From Bacillales bacterium UBA1719 (lineage in GTDB: Bacteria; Bacillota_I; Bacilli_A; RFN20; CAG-826): a stretch of 34,238 bases of DNA. Location: assembly GCA_002317145.1 (NCBI GenBank), contig DCIT01000030.1:3580-37817 (forward strand), in the 5' to 3' direction. The notes under the pieces were generated by a model. That model did no database searches, was not told where the DNA came from, and worked only from the letters and a program-made list of their open reading frames with translations. A program made the translations under genes and the position numbers. How positions within the stretch are numbered: position 1 is the stretch's first letter; every line of letters begins with the position of its first letter. Shown here piece by piece: positions 762 to 26,048 of this stretch.

Positions 762-2819
762 TTATTGCTTTTCGTTAAGAACTAAAAGATGCTTCGCTAA
801 ATCTTGTGGAGTTGTTAATTCATCAGTATCAAAACCACATTTATCTTTTTGTGTTGTTCCAGTTATTATATTATTTGAAGAATTCAAGGTATAAGGTGAA
901 GATTGACTTATATCAGGTTCTGAACATCCAACATAACAACAGTTTTCAAGTACATTGTCATTAATATTAATTGTCGCGCCATTAATACATGTCTCATGGA
1001 CTAAGAAGCAGTTTGAATTGCAATTATTAAATGTATTATTTTTTACATCGAAAACCGTTTTGTTAGAAGAACCAGAGAATTGGAGCGCGCCAACTCCACA
1101 TTTTTCACTTTTACCAACATTCAAATCTATAAATGTGTTGTTCTCTACTAATACGTTACCAGCAGATTTAGCGTTTAATTGAACACCACGTTTATAATTT
1201 TTAACAACGTTATTAGTAAATTTAACAGTGTCATCATTTATAATATCTGATCCAACATAATATAAACCATATTTTTGGGAAGAAGACTTTCCATCAAATA
1301 CACAGTTATTAATGGTTATATCTAACTTACCACCTTCAATATACATTCTGTTTTGAATATTACAATGTTCAAAATCTAATTTATTTGTATATGATACTTC
1401 AGAAGAACCGTTAGAAATATAATTTCCACTATTAACTGACCTATCATCGATATCAATATTTTTAAATGTATAAGAATTAACAATATCTGTTCTAGAACTA
1501 TTCTTTATATTCATTGTTAATTGCTCAGTTTGACGTAAATTGTTAGCATTTAACTTTAATGATGGTTTATTATCTGTAACACCAACCATTTTTATATCGG
1601 TAATGAATAAGTTATCATTCTCACCAATGCCACATGATTTTCTACCAAAACTATAAAAATATCTTGTATCGTTAACACCATAAGGAATCTCTAATTGTTC
1701 ACCATCTTTGGTATATAATTCCCAAGTTAAAGTTGCATATTCATTGCCTTGTTCGTCTACTCTAATATCGGTAAATGTATTATCAAAAACTTCTTTAGTG
1801 CATTTGCCGTGTGCAAGATCGTTATCACTAACTGTTTTCATAATTGCAAGCCCAGCATCAAAAGCTTTTTGCATAGTTGAATAATGATTTGCCATTCCAT
1901 TAATACCACGGACAATAACACCAGTTTCAGAAGCGATCCAATGAGCTTTTAATGAAACATCTTCGTTAATCAATGTATCAAAACTAAATTCTTCATCTTT
2001 ATCTTCAAGTGACCAATATTTTAATGAACATAAATCTTTTATAGGATCAGTAGGTTTACTAACTTTATTATTCTTTTTAACTTCTACTACTTGTTTATCT
2101 TCTCCGTTATTCGGATCAAATGTAACAGTATATTTTCTATCCTCAACTTCCATTTCGATAGAGATAGGACCTAATACTTTTTTAATATATAAGTCAGCCT
2201 TATCTTTACTAATTAATGTATAGGTGTAATAGTTTTCTGGTTCAGTTTCATTAACTTTAATATTTGAATTTAAAGTTGGTTTAACATATTCAGGTAATAT
2301 AACATCACCAGTTTTAACAACTTTTAATTTCTTTGGTAATTGTTTTGTTTCTCTTGCTTCTTCTTTTAAAGTAAATTCTGTTTGTAAAGGTTTACCAACT
2401 TCTACTTTATCTCCAAAATCAATATCAACATATTTCTTAACTTCTTCAGGTACTATTACATTATTACCTTTCCAAACAGTAACCGCTAAAACAGGGAATA
2501 TAACAGCAGAGCTAACTGCGGCACATACTAAAACACTAGTAACAATCTGAGTAGAGACTTTTAAGTTTCTAAACCATGTAAAACTAGGTTTCTTAGGAAC
2601 TTCATAGTAGGTATTATCAATTAACCACCATAGACGATTACGTAATAAATAATCATCATAAACATAATCTTTTTTAGAATATTCATAATGATAATGGCCG
2701 TGACTTAAATCATAGCTTCTAACTTCTTCTTTAGTATAGCTACGTAATTTCTTTCTATTTCTATACTCTTTTTGATATTCTGCAAGAGTATGATTACAAA
2801 AAACTATCCCCTTAGACAT
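762..2819 (-). CDS. Signal-anchored surface protein: conserved about 86-aa cytoplasmic N-domain, one TM helix, a Listeria-Bacteroides (Flg_new) repeat, and a C-terminal Asn-rich beta-helix-like region
   Basis: 685-aa ORF. The N-terminus is paralogous to the next gene. TM segment VTSVLVCAAVSSAVIFPVLAV. YTVTFDPNNGEDKQ...YWSLEDKDEEFSFDTLINEDVSLKAHW fits the Flg_new repeat. Cys/Asn-rich repeats (NNxF.NC) occur in the C-terminal third. Confidence 0.8.
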   Translation of the reverse strand: MSKGIVFCNHTLAEYQKEYRNRKKLRSYTKEEVRSYDLSHGHYHYEYSKKDYVYDDYLLRNRLWWLIDNTYYEVPKKPSFTWFRNLKVSTQIVTSVLVCAAVSSAVIFPVLAVTVWKGNNVIVPEEVKKYVDIDFGDKVEVGKPLQTEFTLKEEARETKQLPKKLKVVKTGDVILPEYVKPTLNSNIKVNETEPENYYTYTLISKDKADLYIKKVLGPISIEMEVEDRKYTVTFDPNNGEDKQVVEVKKNNKVSKPTDPIKDLCSLKYWSLEDKDEEFSFDTLINEDVSLKAHWIASETGVIVRGINGMANHYSTMQKAFDAGLAIMKTVSDNDLAHGKCTKEVFDNTFTDIRVDEQGNEYATLTWELYTKDGEQLEIPYGVNDTRYFYSFGRKSCGIGENDNLFITDIKMVGVTDNKPSLKLNANNLRQTEQLTMNIKNSSRTDIVNSYTFKNIDIDDRSVNSGNYISNGSSEVSYTNKLDFEHCNIQNRMYIEGGKLDITINNCVFDGKSSSQKYGLYYVGSDIINDDTVKFTNNVVKNYKRGVQLNAKSAGNVLVENNTFIDLNVGKSEKCGVGALQFSGSSNKTVFDVKNNTFNNCNSNCFLVHETCINGATININDNVLENCCYVGCSEPDISQSSPYTLNSSNNIITGTTQKDKCGFDTDELTTPQDLAKHLLVLNEKQ
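2565..2819 (-). repeat. 5' cassette copy A shared with 5869..6123 (encodes the cytoplasmic His/Tyr-rich domain)
   Basis: Hand alignment to 5869..6123 is gap-free, with about 34 mismatches in 255 nt. Similarity collapses immediately downstream in the TM segment and ectodomain. Confidence 0.9.
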
Positions 2820-2874
2820 ATATTGTTTTCCTAATATATTATAGTATGTATTTTTTTTAAAAAAACGATATTAA

Positions 2875-5800
2875 TTAGAATTCTTGGACTGTATATACTC
2901 CACCCCAAGCTAAATTATTCCAATCATCACCAAATTTTTCTGATGTAAAAATAGCTGGGTTCTTTCCGCCTAAATCTTGTGTTTGATGATAGAAAACACC
3001 AGTGCCACTATGTGACCCTGGATGAGCACCATTCATTAAGCCGTTACAATCGATAGCACTACCAGCATAGTTGTACATGTCAAAATGTCCTTCACTATAT
3101 TGGAGCAATAAATAGTGTGCATTTTCAGTAGATGTGCATCTAATAGTACCATAATTATGAATAGTTAAATTACATGTACCCGTTGAACTAGTAATAGACA
3201 TACAATGTCTTTGACTAGAAGACACTAAACCATTATTAATAAATTCTTTTGTCACAGTTCCTTCAAAATTATCAATATTGAGTCCGCCAATTGTGCCATT
3301 ATTAGTGCATTTAGTTGATAAACCATTTAAATCAATTCCGTTAGTTATAGTTCCGTTATTTATAACTGAACTACCTTCACCTTTAATAGTTAAATGGCTA
3401 ATAGTCGCACCTTCAGCAACAGTGACAACAGTATTTTTAGAATTAATAGTAATATAAGCATTTGGAGCGTTGCTTAATGTAACATCTCCCATCGGTGCTT
3501 CAATATCTAAAGAAACAATATTACTAGGATTAGTAAATGTCTCAAATAATTTTGTGTCGGATTTAATAGTTAAATGACTTACTTCCGTAGCAATGTTATA
3601 TGTTCCAGGATTATTTACTTTAACATTATTGAATTCGCATATATGAGTTTTATATATTGAAGAAGTAAGGCCATCGAATAATTCATTTGTAGTAGCAAAT
3701 TCAACATTAGACATTTTTAAATCTTGCATATCAGCTGCAATTGTTGAAGCTCTACCTCCATCTGCTATTATTTTTCCGTTATTGACACAATTTTTAACTT
3801 CTTGAGTAAAATGAGAAGAGTTCGCTTCACCAGCGATAATTCCGGATTTAAATTTAGCCTTACCAATCAAATCTCCATTATTAATGCAATTAACAAATTC
3901 GCCTCTTCCTAAAGAACAGATTCCTGCCATATCATCAACCGTTTCTGCAGCATTATTAATTACTTGACCATTATTTGTTGTGTTTGCAATTAATTCAAGA
4001 CCTTGATGACCATAACCAACAATACCTGCTATATATTGAGGGCGTTTAGCTCCACCATCTGGATTTGTAGTTACTATTCCATTATTTACACATCCAATAA
4101 TACTTAAACTTTTATCAGTATCGCCACCATTTGTATAACCGCATAATCCACCTGCGCCGCCTACACCTGGACTTTCATTATTTAAACAAATAATTTTTGC
4201 GTTATTTGTTGTATTAACAATCGCTTGCCCAGAAGAACAGTCACCAATTCTACTTTGTGTATATCCAGATATACCGCCTACATGATAAACATCGCTTGTA
4301 ACAGTAACATCTGATCCAGTAGAGCAATTAATCATTGCACAACAAGATAAATCTCCTGCAAAGCCACCAACAGCTTTATATCCTTTTACAGTTCCTGATA
4401 AGAAATGAACATTTTCTATTCTTACAGCAAAAGCGGTTCCAGCAAGAGCTCCAACTTGCTTTTTCTTTGCAGATGCTTCTATCTCAAAATTTGAATTAGC
4501 AATATTTAAATTTTTAACAACACATGTGTATTTATCTTCAGTGATATTATCTTCATAGAACGCATTATCTTTCCAAACATGCGTTTTATTTTCAAAATTA
4601 AGGTTTTCCGTGCCTTCAATAACACCAAATAATCCGCAATTCGCTGTAGTTTGCTTGCAATTAATATTAGATATTGTCGAGTTACATCCATCAACATATC
4701 CTTTAAACTTATATGTTGAGTTACCAATTGGAGTAAAGTTTGGGGTATCGCTTAAATCAATATTTTTAGTAATTCTATAATATTTATCGGCATAAGAGGC
4801 AGCAGTTGTTTCGTTATTTACTTTACTTGAAAGATCATTTAAAGAAGCGGATGTTGAAATAGAAAACGGAGATTCTTTAGTTCCAAATCCGCCATTAAAG
4901 TCTCTTGTTTCTGGAATCGCTTCTTCTTTCTTCTTTACAATTGTTTGATCAGCAGATTCACTAGTAATATCTTCAACTGTTTCGGTAACATTATTAGTCT
5001 TAGCTACAGTACCAACATAAGAATCTTCTTTAGCATTAATCTTTACACCATCGATTTCAACAATAATCGAATTGATTTTAGCTTCAGGTTCAACAACTAG
5101 TTTTGCTTTACTTTTAACAACAACTTCGCCATCAACACTTCCGTGTTCATTATATGTTCCTTCAAAACTGTCAACGCTTAAAGAAGTAGCGACACCATAG
5201 TGATGTATATCCGTAACTGAACCTTTAATGTCTAAATCATTTCTATTTGTTACAACAACTGGTTTAAAATCGTTGCTAGTTTCAGCCTTTTCAAACTTTA
5301 ACTTATATTGCTTGTTGTATCCAACATCTAAGCTTGTATTAAATATTAATTCGTCCTTGTCATCATTAGCAAATTTAAAAACATTCTTCGCATTTAAATT
5401 ATTTATATTTTTGTTAATGGTTTTTTCTTTAATATAAGTTCCATAAACATTTGATGGATCGCTAATACTCTTGTCTAATACGTAATTATCAGAAAATTTA
5501 AAGACAGAACTTTTGTATTTAAATTCTTTTGCGGTATATGCAACAGATCCGTCTTTATTTAAAAGAACAAATTCACGATTTTCAGTATCGAATGCATACT
5601 CTTTATTTTGATCTTGAGTTTTTTGTTCTTCTAAATTAATCCCTTTGCTAGTCTTTATAAATTCAACAGCATCAAACAATGTTTTGATATTTGTTTCTTT
5701 AGCAATCAAATTATTTAATTCTGTAACATAAGTTACATCAGGATCTATTGGGGTTGGGCCTGGTTGAGGGCCTGGTTTTGGGAGATTTAAAACAATCGCG

Positions 5801-24116: not shown

Positions 24117-24767
24117 TTATTTTATATAACTCTTAATCTTACTTTTATAGTCAGATATGTGATTGAAGAATATTTCTTTAAATTCATTAACTGCGATACT
24201 AGGATCTTCATGGTCAAAGCGATTATCTACTCTTAAGAATGGTTCATATATCTCAGCGAATTTCATTAATAATTCTTCTGGGATATTTATCTTTCCTAAT
24301 TTAGATGCAATTGCGAATGCTTTCATTAATCTATTTCTAATTGGTTCTACATATTCATATATGCATGTCTTAATATATAAGACTTCTTCTGGAGTAGCAT
24401 CTGGTAACATAAGATAAGTATTCTTAAATTTCTTATCACTCTTTTTAATAGTGGATTGTAAATAATGATCTAATCTAATACATCCATCTAAGTCTCCAAA
24501 GTCTGCAATATAAAGCATCTCTAAATAAGATACTTTCTCTCCGTTAGTACCTATATCAAGTAATGAGTATTGTAAAACGCAGTTAAAATCTTTAACCATG
24601 TTCTTAAATCCTGTCGCATCCTTTGAATCATTTAACTTCTTTGATTTATCGTTAAAAATATCTTTGCGCGCTTTTAATGGAAGCTTAAGATAGAGTTTAT
24701 ACAACTCTTCTATTAATGCTTCATAGGCAACCTTGCCTCTTCTAAAAATATCCGGTGTTTGTTCCAT
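24117..24767 (-). CDS. Hypothetical cytoplasmic protein (216 aa), no recognisable domain
   Basis: Long ORF with no TM helix or signal peptide. It sits 20 nt upstream of the lipoprotein genes with no terminator between them. Confidence 0.6.
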   Translation of the reverse strand: MEQTPDIFRRGKVAYEALIEELYKLYLKLPLKARKDIFNDKSKKLNDSKDATGFKNMVKDFNCVLQYSLLDIGTNGEKVSYLEMLYIADFGDLDGCIRLDHYLQSTIKKSDKKFKNTYLMLPDATPEEVLYIKTCIYEYVEPIRNRLMKAFAIASKLGKINIPEELLMKFAEIYEPFLRVDNRFDHEDPSIAVNEFKEIFFNHISDYKSKIKSYIK

Positions 24768-24812: not shown

Positions 24813-24838
24813 TTTAAAAAAGGACCTAAAGGTCCTTA
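24813..24838 (-). terminator. Terminator of the ATPase gene
   Basis: Minus strand: AAGGACC-TTTA-GGTCCTT followed by TTTTTT. Confidence 0.8.
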
Positions 24839-24840
24839 AT

Positions 24841-25899
24841 TTATTTATCTCCTTCTATATAAGCAGTAAATAAAACGAATTCTTTAAACCTTGGTAATGC
24901 TAATTTAATACTTCCTCTTTTATCAGAGATTATTAAACCTGAAAATAGAAGTGATTTTCTATAAACTTGAAATTCATTGTTTTTCATTTTTAATTTATTT
25001 AATAATTCAGAATGTGACATCTCTTTATTGTTCGCTAAAGTTTCAATTACTAATCTTTCTTTTTTAGATAACTCTTTCCAAATTTGAGAATATGAACGAT
25101 CTTCCATGATAATGTCAAACTCATCTTTAATTTTATCGGTGATTTCATATTTCTTTTCTTTAAATAATAGACTACCTAATATTTGAAATGCGTATGCATA
25201 TCCACATGTGAACATAGCAAAATTAATAGATGTTTCTAAATCAACTTTAAAAATCTCTTTATATGTTGTTGCAATTGCACGTATACTTAAAGGCTCAACT
25301 AATATTTTAGGAGCTCTTAACAAAAATGTAAGTGACTTATCACTATATAAAGAACTTACATTGTTGTATATTCCTGTCGCTATAAAATACAAAGAATATC
25401 CTTGCCTAATTAAACTTTGATAAGCTTGAACAAAAGCTTTTACATAATCGTTTTTAGCAATATCATCTACTGTAAATAAGACTTTGATGTTCTTCCTTTT
25501 TAAATATTCAAGCATTTGTTTTAATAAAGAAAAAATGTCTTTGATTTTTTTATCTCCGATTAATGAGAAAGAAACGCCTTTAAAGGAAAATGAAAATTCT
25601 TTTTTTATAAATAAATTTTTGATTTTAGCAGAATCATATAAGCGCACAGCAGCTTGTTCAAGCATTTCCATGCAAGGATTAAGATCGATGCTTATCCAAT
25701 TATCCATTGAATCAAATTCTTTAATAATCTGAGCTAATAAAACTGTTTTACCACATCCTCTAGGACCAGTAATTATGTATGATTCCACATTTGGATTTTT
25801 ATTATTAAATGTATTGATGACGTGATCAATAGTATTTTGTCTATAGATTAACTTTAATGGTGTTTTTCCAAACGTAATATTAAATGGGTTGTCTTTCAT
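24841..25899 (-). CDS. P-loop ATPase (archaeal-ATPase / Orc1-Cdc6-like AAA family) with a C-terminal winged-helix domain
   Basis: Walker A GPRGCGKT, Walker B VLFTVDD, and a C-terminal SHSELLNKL...YRKSLLFSGLI wHTH-like region. Start chosen at MKDNPFNITFGK. The maximal ORF (to 26034) runs through the recA terminator. An alternative start is at 25965. Confidence 0.75.
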   Translation of the reverse strand: MKDNPFNITFGKTPLKLIYRQNTIDHVINTFNNKNPNVESYIITGPRGCGKTVLLAQIIKEFDSMDNWISIDLNPCMEMLEQAAVRLYDSAKIKNLFIKKEFSFSFKGVSFSLIGDKKIKDIFSLLKQMLEYLKRKNIKVLFTVDDIAKNDYVKAFVQAYQSLIRQGYSLYFIATGIYNNVSSLYSDKSLTFLLRAPKILVEPLSIRAIATTYKEIFKVDLETSINFAMFTCGYAYAFQILGSLLFKEKKYEITDKIKDEFDIIMEDRSYSQIWKELSKKERLVIETLANNKEMSHSELLNKLKMKNNEFQVYRKSLLFSGLIISDKRGSIKLALPRFKEFVLFTAYIEGDK

Positions 25900-25935
25900 A
25901 TTTTCTATTTCCCAAATAATATTGTAATCGATATT

Positions 25936-26008
25936 TTGTCTTTTTAAAAATTTTTTGTCTTTCATTGTCTTTTGTTGTCTTTCATTGTCAATTAAAAAAT
26001 ATTTTGTC
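25936..26008 (-). repeat. Phased array of six GACAA direct repeats (spacing 19-10-10-10-19 bp) upstream of the ATPase gene
   Basis: Plus-strand TTGTC at 26004, 25985, 25975, 25965, 25955 and 25936, with a seventh at 25889 inside the start region. The 15-mer GACAATGAAAGACAA is duplicated exactly. Confidence 0.85.
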
Positions 26009-26013
26009 ATCCT

Positions 26014-26044
26014 TATAATAAGAAATAAGGGCATTAGCCCTTAT
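26014..26044 (-). terminator. recA terminator
   Basis: Minus strand: ATAAGGGC-TAAT-GCCCTTAT followed by TTCTTATTAT. Confidence 0.8.
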
Positions 26045-26048
26045 CATC

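Follow-up and report, generated by a model that had tools for sequence, protein, structure and literature searches.

The window analysed here, a stretch of 34,238 nucleotides from Bacillales bacterium UBA1719, carries six copies of the pentamer GACAA on its minus strand, in the space between the recA terminator and a gene encoding an ATPase with a C-terminal winged helix, and the question raised by this locus is what such an ordered series of short repeats is for and which protein might read it. This locus represents an accessory insertion with recA on one side and a conserved 216-aa gene on the other. Its main features are as follows.

26024..26045, minus strand: recA intrinsic terminator (9-bp stem plus T-run), the upstream limit of the module
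25936..26008, minus strand: direct-repeat array of six GACAA cores, the only such cluster in the assembly
26008-26004, 25989-25985, 25979-25975, 25969-25965, 25959-25955 and 25940-25936, minus strand: the six GACAA cores
25990..26003, minus strand: distal A/T-tract spacer aatattttttaatt, which produces the first 19-bp step
25941..25954, minus strand: proximal A/T-tract spacer aaaatttttaaaaa, which produces the second 19-bp step and holds a -35-like TTTAAA
25889..25893, minus strand: seventh GACAA, within codons 3-4 of the ATPase gene and outside the conserved array
24841..25899, minus strand: ATPase gene, 352 aa, with Walker A GPRGCGKT, Walker B D145-D146, conserved N180 and R195 and a C-terminal winged helix
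24892..25065, minus strand: region coding for the winged helix-turn-helix (residues 279-336), from the secondary structure of the model
24943..24981, minus strand: recognition helix H3 (residues 307-319), NNEFQVYRKSLLF, in which Q311, V312 and K315, together with R328 of the wing, co-vary with the repeat word

Layout of the array and its putative promoter

In agreement with a preliminary description of this DNA, consecutive cores are separated by steps of 19-10-10-10-19 bp. The same description regarded the arrangement as symmetric and helically phased, and its core as an exact tandem duplication. The spacing is indeed symmetric and the inner four sites are in phase, but the repeats are all direct, the symmetry lying in the spacing alone, and a step of 19 bp (about 1.8 helical turns) leaves the outer sites out of phase with the inner four. 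Likewise, GACAATGAAAGACAA does occur in two exact copies (25989-25975 and 25969-25955), with a two-mismatch copy in between, but the exact copies are offset by 20 bp and joined by a CAAAA linker rather than abutting; three matches to GACAATGAAAGACAA were reached in none of 100 shuffles, and TRF reports the region both with a period of 20 (2.0 copies, 94% matches) and with a period of 10 (3.5 copies). The seventh pentamer of that description was also found, although it is not conserved: its distance of 47 bp to the sixth unit falls outside the 10/19/29 series, and it reads GATAA in two close relatives (L027 and L124) and GAAAA in a third (L125).

The suspicion that the motif might simply be frequent genome-wide was not borne out. 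Even though GACAA occurs about 600 times per strand across the 861,753-bp genome, the array is the only site with at least five copies within 125 bp and the only occurrence of GACAA-N5-GACAA, and no second GACAA cluster of this type exists in the 862-kb assembly. An RNA element was rejected, since no Rfam match near threshold was obtained and the RNA fold is no better than that of shuffled sequences (z = 0.56). In L027, whose ATPase is 85% identical to that of the window, the six cores and their spacing are kept, with none of the 30 core positions changed and eight changes in the approximately 52 positions between cores; the array of L124 differs by exactly one 10-bp unit. The recA terminator hairpin is preserved in both.

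The array overlaps sequences resembling a promoter, which are listed here together with the remaining elements of the start region.

25921..25948, minus strand: likeliest promoter, with -35 TTTAAA (25948-25943), a 16-bp spacer containing the sixth GACAA and -10 TACAAT (25926-25921); 9 of 12 positions match
25964..25991, minus strand: alternative promoter-like match, TTGACA, 16-bp spacer and GACAAT, made of repeat units; 10 of 12 positions match
25908..25913, minus strand: putative weak Shine-Dalgarno-like GGGAAA, 8 nt before the ATPase start codon, identical in L027
25962..25985, minus strand: mini-ORF of seven codons, MKDNKRQ*, a by-product of the repeat sequence

Promoter calls are weak in DNA of 29% GC, the region containing 5 matches against 3.4 expected. 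Nevertheless, both hexamers of the TTTAAA/TACAAT promoter are kept in all four close relatives, the -10 being TATAAT in L124 and L125, and the same type of layout recurs at other loci of the family (L008, L028, L029, L036-L038) and at a paralogue in the same genome. Since L124 lacks the -35 of the TTGACA/GACAAT match and L125 has an altered one, this match is the less likely promoter, and we infer that transcription starts from the TTTAAA/TACAAT promoter. With regard to translation, the start of the ATPase gene is 25899, as had been proposed: homologues are about 350 aa long and open with M-x-x-NPF. Gene callers push the open reading frame 22-45 codons into the array, giving proteins of 374-397 aa instead of about 350.

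The ATPase, its family and their repeat words

At the level of the predicted fold (AF2 model, pLDDT 87.6), the ATPase can fairly be called Orc1/Cdc6-like, with AAA+ plus a C-terminal winged helix. The top Foldseek match of the model is 2qen (E = 8e-13, TM 0.59), the Walker-type ATPase PABY2304 of Pyrococcus abyssi, followed by the archaeal Cdc6/Orc1 structures 1fnn, 1w5t, 2qby and 2v1u (E = 1e-12 to 1e-9, TM 0.44-0.54). In sequence, the protein matches Pfam PF01637 ATPase_2 with 43.3 bits against a cut-off of 33.2, over residues 39-173 and therefore in its N-terminal part only, and so do 22 of the 24 family members tested (best E = 5.8e-15); 2qen is assigned to this same entry, which is described as an 'ATPase domain predominantly from Archaea'. 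The Cdc6_C and Orc Pfam profiles gave no match to the window ATPase, PF24389 ORC-CDC6-like matches only 2 of the 24 members, and the single PDB sequence match is to Orc4, in the P-loop region (E = 6e-4). The winged helix displayed weak profile matches to those of AdcR, HlyU and BlaI. A loop with the pattern EFSFSFKGxSFSxxGD is also conserved. No sensor, repeat or effector domain was found in the 352 residues, and the STAND-type Pfam models (NB-ARC, nSTAND) match weakly, below or near their cut-offs. Searches for defence functions returned weak PADLOC matches to PDC-S01, an AAA_14/DUF4143 defence candidate, in the P-loop region only (residues ~16-91); the ATPase has no DUF4143 Pfam match and no nuclease domain, and an hhalign comparison of the family with neighbouring DUF4143 proteins aligned 31 P-loop columns. 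A PHROGs search gave nothing meaningful for the locus.

The preliminary description had suggested looking for the array upstream of orthologous ATPases, and there it is found. In a first sample every relative displayed its own array of direct repeats of about 10 bp directly upstream, and an array is likewise present in the nearest relatives from metagenomes (85%, 61% and 59% identity). When at least four copies of a 7-mer in the 220 bp upstream were taken as the threshold, 63 of 77 homologous loci were positive, compared with 13 of 389 controls, and all 13 of these proved to be the same arrays read from a divergent neighbour. The words differ among lineages and among paralogues of one genome: the paralogue mentioned above has its own array, with the word AGTATAACAA, and one genome (G008) contains four paralogues with arrays built on ATATACA, GTATAAA, GTATGAA and GTCTAAA. 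Homologues on plasmids, 22-34% identical, also carry upstream arrays. What is shared is a grammar, in which blocks of 10-bp steps are joined by 19-bp steps over an A/T-tract spacer. Steps of 10 bp (n = 144) and 19 bp (n = 86) are followed by those of 20 bp (n = 32) and 29 bp (n = 18), the number of sites per array is 4-9 or more, and the exact 19-10-10-10-19 spacing recurs with other words at three loci (L029, L039, L057). The words always lie on the strand of the gene and align as A-[AG]-T-[TG]-A-[TC]-A-A-[AC]-[AG], and the family-wide consensus of the 19-bp step is A(A/G)AAtTTTnAAA(A/G). The idea that -35 hexamers are the cause of this spacer was discarded, as only 19 of 99 match TTGACA in at least five of six positions and the common feature is an A-tract/T-tract.

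Of the 48 loci at which a sigma-70-like sequence matches in 10 of 12 positions, 43 have one or more words overlapped by the best such match. Two layouts occur: the array is mostly upstream of the promoter at loci of the GACAA/TACAA (Bacilli-type) clade, and those of the TTATAA-word (Lachnospiraceae-type) clade have it mostly within the transcribed leader; therefore, the sign and mode of regulation could differ between clades.

The loci lie on chromosomes, next to housekeeping genes that vary from one genome to another; the ATPase gene was found on just 9 plasmids out of 72,556 and in no phage. No conserved neighbour gene, partner or operon was detected in 82 loci; ABC-type ATPases are the next most common neighbour, in 11 of them. 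The family is patchy, multi-copy and apparently spread horizontally, comprising at least 584 clusters at 50% identity (E <=1e-30), or 1,791 at E <=1e-10; its members occur mainly in gut and rumen bacteria and are annotated just as 'AAA family ATPase' or 'ATP-binding protein'. Culturable carriers include Butyrivibrio sp. XPD2002 and VCD2006, Waltera acetigignens, Pseudobutyrivibrio xylanivorans MA3014 (plasmid pNP95) and Lactobacillus crispatus Lc116 (p1). A literature search covering PF01637, COG1672/DUF234/Arch_ATPase, PABY2304/2QEN and the Cdc6 winged helix with own-promoter repeats found no account of the family or of its arrays, and the MANTIS preprint concerns a different protein of the ORC/Cdc6 clade. 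No other phased cognate pairs were found elsewhere in this genome or in a 2.1-Mb relative (G061), and word matches with two mismatches in a further genome (G062) belong to a different repeat. A self-promoter as the sole visible target makes an incomplete story for an ATPase. In the paralogue a second mini-array lies past the stop codon, so that arrays bracket the gene, which is the case in this one of the 63 loci; a promoter operator does not explain this mini-array.

The words change together with residues of the recognition helix and wing of the adjacent ATPase. The following pairs of helix residues and words were found.

QVY(K/R) with GACAA
QTYK with GACCAA
(E/A)VYK with TACAA
SVYR with TTATA(A/T)
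SKYR and SQYR with TATGA
S(S/T)YR with TTATAGA
NPYR with AGTAAA

Lysine or glutamine at position 312 accompanies TATGA in 11 of 11 cases with three origins, and glutamate or alanine at position 311 accompanies TACAA in 4 of 4 cases, also with three origins, these being counted on a tree of the AAA+ domain only. No discordant helix-word contrast was found on this tree, each contrast representing only 2-3 independent events. Sign tests are individually non-significant (p = 0.5 to 0.125) and underpowered, with 2-6 independent pairs per trait. In a partial Mantel test, the distance between words correlates with that between H3 plus wing, given the AAA+ distance (r = 0.30, p = 0.0005). Eight of the top 25 mutual-information residues fall within 296-328; phylogeny accounts for much of the mutual-information signal, P46 and Y185 among others scoring too. 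Based on these comparisons, we hypothesize a candidate recognition code, in which specific positions of the word are matched by residues 311 and 312 in the recognition helix and by residue 328 in the wing.

Function of the array

What is observed directly is an array that is unique in its genome, conserved in the family with lineage-specific words and overlapping promoter-like sites. The GACAA words are most likely docking sites for the DNA-reading domain of the ATPase itself. We consider it probable that the array serves the ATPase as a private, cooperative operator for repressing the promoter of its own gene; here the binding to the array, its dependence on ATP and the sign of the regulation are what we infer from sequence comparison. 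Each winged helix would read one word of about 7-10 bp, in this case (A)GACAA(N), and protomers would occupy successive words at 10-bp intervals in a head-to-tail row, forming blocks of two to four, the 9-bp A/T-tract insert linking the blocks and giving rise to the 19-bp steps. Oligomerisation of the ATPase domains may then lead to cooperative occupancy. As the array overlaps the gene's putative promoter, its last word lying between -35 TTTAAA and -10 TACAAT, a filled array would shut off transcription, and the gene would therefore hold its own product at a set level.

Other explanations assign the array a different role. It might nucleate an ATPase-DNA assembly of higher order that serves mainly a non-transcriptional purpose, for example melting of the origin or iteron type, a complex that resembles a centromere or structures the chromosome, or a sensor or defence platform, any effect on the promoter being secondary. 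The resemblance of the fold to Orc1/Cdc6 initiators, a number of sites beyond the need of a simple repressor (4-9 or more), the conserved A/T-tract spacers, the arrays on both sides of the paralogue gene, the patchy and apparently horizontal multi-copy distribution and the weak PDC-S01 matches in the P-loop region are all in line with such an assembly. Nevertheless, it appears unlikely, given the chromosomal loci with changing housekeeping neighbours, the near-absence from plasmids and phages, an ATPase lacking an effector domain, a second flanking array at just one locus and the overlap between array and promoter in most loci; in addition, neither an inverted pair of the ORB type nor a distinct unwinding element was detected. 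Accordingly, of the two functions initially proposed for the repeats, iterons or origin-recognition boxes on one hand and a cooperative operator on the other, the covariation between word and helix agrees with an array belonging to the adjacent AAA+/winged-helix ATPase, but the 10-bp units and chromosomal loci speak against iterons or an origin, and neither locus context nor the survey of 72,556 plasmids supports a replication function for the family. An activator site, at which an ATPase oligomer bound upstream would recruit RNA polymerase in the manner of the MalT-type STAND regulators and give positive autoregulation (a bistable switch), seems quite improbable. It would suit the position of the words of the GACAA/TACAA clade, mostly upstream of the -35, the poor -35 (TTTAAA), which resembles that of activator-dependent promoters, and the array of pNP95, which ends exactly at a TTGACG -35. 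However, the GACAA/TACAA clade always has one word inside the -35/-10 spacer, and in the TTATAA-word clade 3-7 words extend downstream of a near-consensus TTGACA-17-TAAAAT promoter to the ribosome-binding site, which is a repressing geometry.

Two further readings need no protein bound to the repeats. The preliminary description noted that the start context ATGAAAGACAA occurs three times and correctly described a mini-ORF, which starts at 25985, and an ATG in frame with the ATPase gene at 25965, from which it derived decoy starts or uORFs controlling translation of the ATPase. In favour of this proposal, the window has three exact copies where 0.04 would be expected (the whole genome has five), and a 22-codon frame from 25965 is open in all four close relatives. 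Yet the ATG of the mini-ORF is lost in all three nearest relatives, which reads TTA in L027 and ATA in L125 and is deleted in L124; ATGAAAGACAA forms the start context in this genome only, L027 showing a synonymous C-to-T change; and the two upstream ATGs, which have no ribosome-binding site, precede the conserved promoter. Moreover, most of the amino-acid changes within the 22-codon extension are non-synonymous, the words of most lineages contain no ATG and the homologues begin at M-x-x-NPF, so that translational control by decoy starts is very improbable. A neutral, slippage-prone duplication of low-complexity DNA, possibly phase-variable and with no protein partner, would fit the AT-rich sequence, the many short TRF repeats in the window and the variable unit number among close relatives, but we regard it as close to negligible: the cluster is unique in its genome, the same grammar recurs across phyla, at 63 of 77 homologous loci, but at no independent control gene, the cores are kept while the linkers drift, and the word co-varies with the recognition helix.

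Beyond the private operator, a broader idea may be put forward, which we regard as doubtful. The family might represent an undescribed and widespread class of Orc1/Cdc6-shaped 'self-addressed' ATPases, each forming an ATP-dependent head-to-tail filament on its private array, with a readable recognition code and a role beyond autorepression, such as opening or remodelling DNA locally, tagging a site on the chromosome or acting as a switch that responds to foreign DNA or damage. If each member does bind the private array at its own promoter, every protein of the family would come with a defined DNA ligand and with natural specificity variants, including orthogonal paralogues within one cell, and the arrays could provide orthogonal repressor-operator pairs for engineering. 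In any case, the conservation of the arrays offers a direct handle on what this uncharacterised family recognises.

Comparison with known systems

Several known systems share part of this organisation. MalT and other STAND regulators combine an NTPase oligomerisation module with a DNA-binding domain and act cooperatively on several direct repeats of about 10 bp, in common with the NTPase module fused to a DNA-binding domain and the promoter repeats described here. However, regulators of the MalT/LAL type consist of a NOD ATPase, a C-terminal sensor or repeat domain and an HTH of the LuxR type, whereas the window ATPase has a winged helix and no sensor or repeat domain, and its visible target is its own promoter instead of a regulon. 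DnaA, an AAA+ protein with a C-terminal HTH (domain IV), forms head-to-tail oligomers on direct boxes about one turn apart and represses its own promoter; the likeness lies in the AAA+ module followed by a DNA-reading domain and in closely spaced sites of one orientation by the gene's own promoter. DnaA is nevertheless universal and essential and reads one conserved box, in contrast to an accessory family of a different clade, with a winged helix and a private word for each member.

Among plasmid systems, ParR/parC of R1 and the omega heptads of pSM19035 consist of short repeats of the same orientation placed over the operon promoter and mediate cooperative autorepression, similarly to the blocks of direct repeats found here at the promoter of the presumed binder's gene. 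These plasmid-borne systems are bound by small dimers of the ribbon-helix-helix type, which are distinct from the ATPase, and serve as centromeres, whereas in the window a single chromosomal protein combines ATPase and reader and has no partner gene. Plasmid iterons with their Rep initiators are likewise autoregulated, and share with this locus the lineage-specific direct repeats adjoining the gene of the presumed binder. Iterons of about 17-22 bp, though, are spaced about two turns (~22 bp) apart beside an AT-rich unwinding region and are bound by a tandem winged-helix Rep with no ATPase, in contrast to chromosomal 10-bp units (steps of 10 and 19 bp) next to a gene for an AAA+ protein with a single winged helix. 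The AAA_14/DUF4143 proteins of PDC-S01, in which a nuclease-like DUF4143 domain follows the AAA_14 ATPase, differ in that similarity to the window protein is confined to the P-loop, with no nuclease domain in the latter.

Archaeal Orc1/Cdc6 with its ORB and mini-ORB sites resembles the present system in its AAA+ module, lid and C-terminal winged helix and in the repeated sites beside its own gene. Unlike Cdc6, the window ATPase belongs by sequence to the ATPase_2 family; unlike the inverted ORBs that flank the AT-rich unwinding element of replication origins, its words are 10-bp direct repeats of one orientation; and unlike the archaeal Orc1/Cdc6 genes, the gene is bacterial, accessory, multi-copy and found in varied chromosomal contexts. 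Orc1-2 of Sulfolobus also differs, as an archaeal true Orc1 and global regulator that acts through a short promoter motif and not through a private multi-copy array at its own gene. In fact, this non-initiator Orc1 paralogue is a DNA-damage-responsive regulator of transcription (PMC9738581), and thus provides a precedent for an AAA+/winged-helix protein of Orc1/Cdc6 shape working as a transcription factor, not an initiator (PMC9738581).

The GACAA array and the probable promoter

The preliminary description had placed six GACAA words upstream of the gene of the 352-aa AAA+ ATPase (24841-25899, minus strand), and their coordinates were reproduced:

26045-26024, minus: recA terminator; the array begins just after it
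26008, 25989, 25979, 25969, 25959 and 25940 (5' ends), minus: GACAA words, read from the sequence
25948-25943 and 25926-25921, minus: conserved promoter-like site, TTTAAA and TACAAT with a 16-bp spacer, from a four-way alignment

The words are spaced 19-10-10-10-19 bp on the minus strand, and the 15-mer GACAATGAAAGACAA occurs in two exact copies 20 bp apart. The symmetry claimed earlier is limited to the spacing, as the repeats are direct; likewise, helical phasing holds for the 10-bp steps but not for the 19-bp steps, which do not amount to an integral number of turns of the helix. The array is real and far beyond chance. In the assembly of this genome (861,753 bp, 54 contigs, 29% GC) GACAA occurs about 600 times per strand, yet no second site with at least five GACAA within 125 bp and no GACAA pair at a 10-bp step outside the array was found.

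In the alignment of the window with relatives at 85%, 76% and 66%, the -10 element reads TATAAT in two of the relatives, and the sixth GACAA sits within the -35/-10 spacer. A TTGACA/GACAAT match scores higher, but it consists of repeat units and its -35 is gone in two relatives. In the 76% relative, L124, exactly one 10-bp unit is missing (window 25980-25989), which suggests that arrays gain and lose sequence one complete unit at a time.

Arrays and words across the family

No published description of this ATPase family or its arrays was found in a literature search. Clustering at 50% identity gives no fewer than 584 clusters for the family (E <= 1e-30), and its members are uniform in length (~350 aa). 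We surveyed 80 further loci from species-representative genomes, with 77 usable upstream regions, counting as an array four or more occurrences of one 7-mer within 220 bp. Arrays were found upstream of 63 of the 77 homologues versus 13 of 389 other genes of the same loci, and all 13 were the same arrays viewed from a divergently transcribed neighbor. Upstream of homologues in related genomes, where the preliminary description had suggested looking, similar arrays are built from different words, namely GACAACAAAT, AGTTCACAAA, AATACTAACA, ATCTAACA, AGTCTAAA, ATATACACAA, AGTTCTAAAA and ATACAA.

Each array consists of 4-9 words grouped in blocks of 2-4, always on the sense strand of the gene, and all words can be aligned to a single degenerate consensus, A-[AG]-T-[TG]-A-[TC]-A-A-[AC]-[AG]. 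From one word to the next, steps of 10 bp (144), 19 bp (86), 20 bp (32) and 29 bp (18) were counted, the additional 9 bp of the 19-bp steps being an A-tract/T-tract with the consensus A(A/G)AAtTTTnAAA(A/G). The exact 19-10-10-10-19 layout recurs with the words TACAA, TGACAAA and TTCACAA. Arrays with 10-bp steps also lie beside distant plasmid homologues (22-34% identity) on Pseudobutyrivibrio xylanivorans pNP95, Lactobacillus crispatus p1 and a plasmid whose record names Bacillus subtilis DK01.

In 43 of 48 family loci, one or more words are overlapped by the best promoter-like match. The GACAA/TACAA (Bacilli-type) clade has the array upstream, with the final word within the promoter; the TTATAA-word (Lachnospiraceae-type) clade has a near-consensus TTGACA-17-TAAAAT at the 5' edge of the array, and 3-7 words occupy the leader as far as the ribosome-binding site. 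Both predicted geometries favor repression, and the Lachnospiraceae-type, so read, is incompatible with simple activation.

Words are also private to each gene. A paralogous ATPase gene of the same genome (contig C1, ~2036-3055, minus strand) has the word AGTATAACAA in the layout 10-19-10, with a predicted promoter (TTGAAG, 17-bp spacer, TATAAT) over the last two words, and another genome, G008, has four paralogues with four different words. Beyond the arrays themselves, no phased cognate word pairs turned up in the window's genome or in a relative of 2.1 Mb.

Several further observations concern individual loci. Directly 3' of the stop codon of the C1 paralogue, the word of this gene recurs in a second mini-array (1999-2034, minus strand; GTATAAC-19-GTATAAC-10-GTATAAC), with a convergent gene beyond, and this paralogue is therefore bracketed by cognate arrays, the only such case among 63 family loci; this hints that the assembly may do more than regulate. 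Genome G062 (locus L042) contains several copies of ATGTCCAAATTCTCATCCGAATGTCCAAA, a different word repeated at a 20-bp step (its contig C1, 324962-325221 and 326578-326606), which may serve some other gene as its array. The ATPase and array of L079, whose contig was assigned to the bin 'Bacteroidales bacterium H4', are near-identical to those of Lachnospiraceae (Waltera) loci (L097, L098 and L108). Either the transfer took place very recently or the binning is wrong, and counts across phyla that rely on MAG titles therefore call for caution. AAA_14/DUF4143-type ATPase genes lie a few kb from family genes at no fewer than five loci (L044, L049 with two genes, L053, L054 and L057), and this proximity may mark shared accessory or defence-island neighborhoods.

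The ATPase and its recognition helix

The start at 25899, which had been called probable, is the true one, since homologues have ~350 aa and begin M-x-x-NPF; predictions of 374-397 aa result from gene callers running into the array. Its match to Pfam ATPase_2 exceeds the threshold, and the family shows no variation at Walker A, Walker B and further AAA+ positions. A confident model (pLDDT 87.6) combines an AAA+ domain with a helical lid and a winged helix (279-335), in which residues 307-319 form the recognition helix. The nearest structure is 2qen, a Walker ATPase of Pyrococcus abyssi, and archaeal Cdc6/Orc1 structures come next. The sole low-confidence part (pLDDT <50) is the motif EFSFSFKGxSFSxxGD (residues 98-114, window 25557-25608), strongly conserved with many invariant positions and located where an insertion is found in AAA+ proteins of the initiator clade; it may be a flexible hairpin contacting DNA or a protomer.

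When loci are grouped by recognition-helix motif, the words fall into matching groups.

Recognition-helix motifs and array words
QVY(K/R): GACAA
QTYK: GACCAA
(E/A)VYK: TACAA
SVYR: TTATA(A/T)
SKYR and SQYR: TATGA
S(S/T)YR: TTATAGA
SNYK: TTCACAA
NPYR: AGTAAA

The top mutual-information pairs with the word are wing R328 and helix Q311, V312 and K315, with phylogenetic background also visible. On a tree of the AAA+ domain alone, K or Q at 312 coincides with TATGA in all 11 rows, residue and word each having three origins, and E or A at 311 coincides with TACAA in all 4 rows, again with three origins. None of the independent contrasts was discordant, but they are too few for significance on their own. 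A partial Mantel test of word against helix-plus-wing distance, controlling for AAA+ distance, gave r = 0.30 (p = 0.0005). Within the small clade of the window, the Q-bearing window, L027 and L124 have GACAA and the E-bearing sisters L028 and L029 have TACAA. Because words track the recognition helix and wing, each ATPase is predicted to bind its own array, for which this is good indirect evidence.

Alternative readings and the proposed mechanism

Translational control by decoy start codons had been suggested from the triplicated start context, and ATGAAAGACAA does occur three times, the third copy being the start of the ATPase gene. This reading is not supported. The ATG at 25985 is lost in all three nearest relatives, and the start-context match and the seventh GACAA are unique to the window genome (L027 has a synonymous change), which leaves that pentamer unsupported as part of the array. 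Changes in the 22-codon in-frame extension are mostly non-synonymous. No RNA family or stable RNA fold was found.

The reading as iterons or origin boxes is not supported either. In five congeners the recA-rny interval contains other genes and a conserved 216-aa gene and lacks the ATPase, and the ATPase with its array is therefore an accessory insertion. No conserved neighbor gene was found among 82 loci, plasmid carriage of homologues is rare, and none was found in a phage collection. The 216-aa orphan gene (24117-24767), next after the ATPase, has 63-69% identity in the five congeners (L116-L120), and the slot between it and recA is filled differently in each genome, by the gene of a 206-aa protein, that of a membrane protein of 246 aa or, in the window, that of the ATPase; being conserved while the slot varies, this gene is resident, outside the insertion. 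In the short gap 3' of the ATPase stop lies a hairpin (24820-24837; 7-bp stem, 4 G-C pairs), called as a terminator on the plus strand only, which would fit a monocistronic ATPase gene if also active on the minus strand.

We hypothesize that the array is probably a private cooperative operator of the adjacent ATPase; binding of the ATPase to it, predicted from sequence covariation, is very likely. Winged helices would read words at 10-bp intervals, AAA+ domains would couple adjacent protomers, and the fully occupied array would occlude the promoter of the ATPase gene; we infer that regulation is negative and depends on ATP, and likewise what the 19-bp step means.

Tests of membership placed the ATPase and array outside the Orc1/Cdc6 initiators, in the case of the ATPase also at the sequence level, and outside Rep/iteron replicons, and the ATPase outside MalT-type STAND regulators and DUF4143 proteins, sharing with the DUF4143 ATPases sometimes found nearby no relationship beyond the P-loop. 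The ATPase resembles Orc1/Cdc6 in structure, and no initiator role is claimed for it; in Sulfolobus an Orc1/Cdc6 paralogue acts as a transcription factor (PMC9738581). The proposed mode would be like that of DnaA at its arrayed boxes, of MalT at MalT boxes, and of ParR and omega at repeat arrays overlapping promoters.
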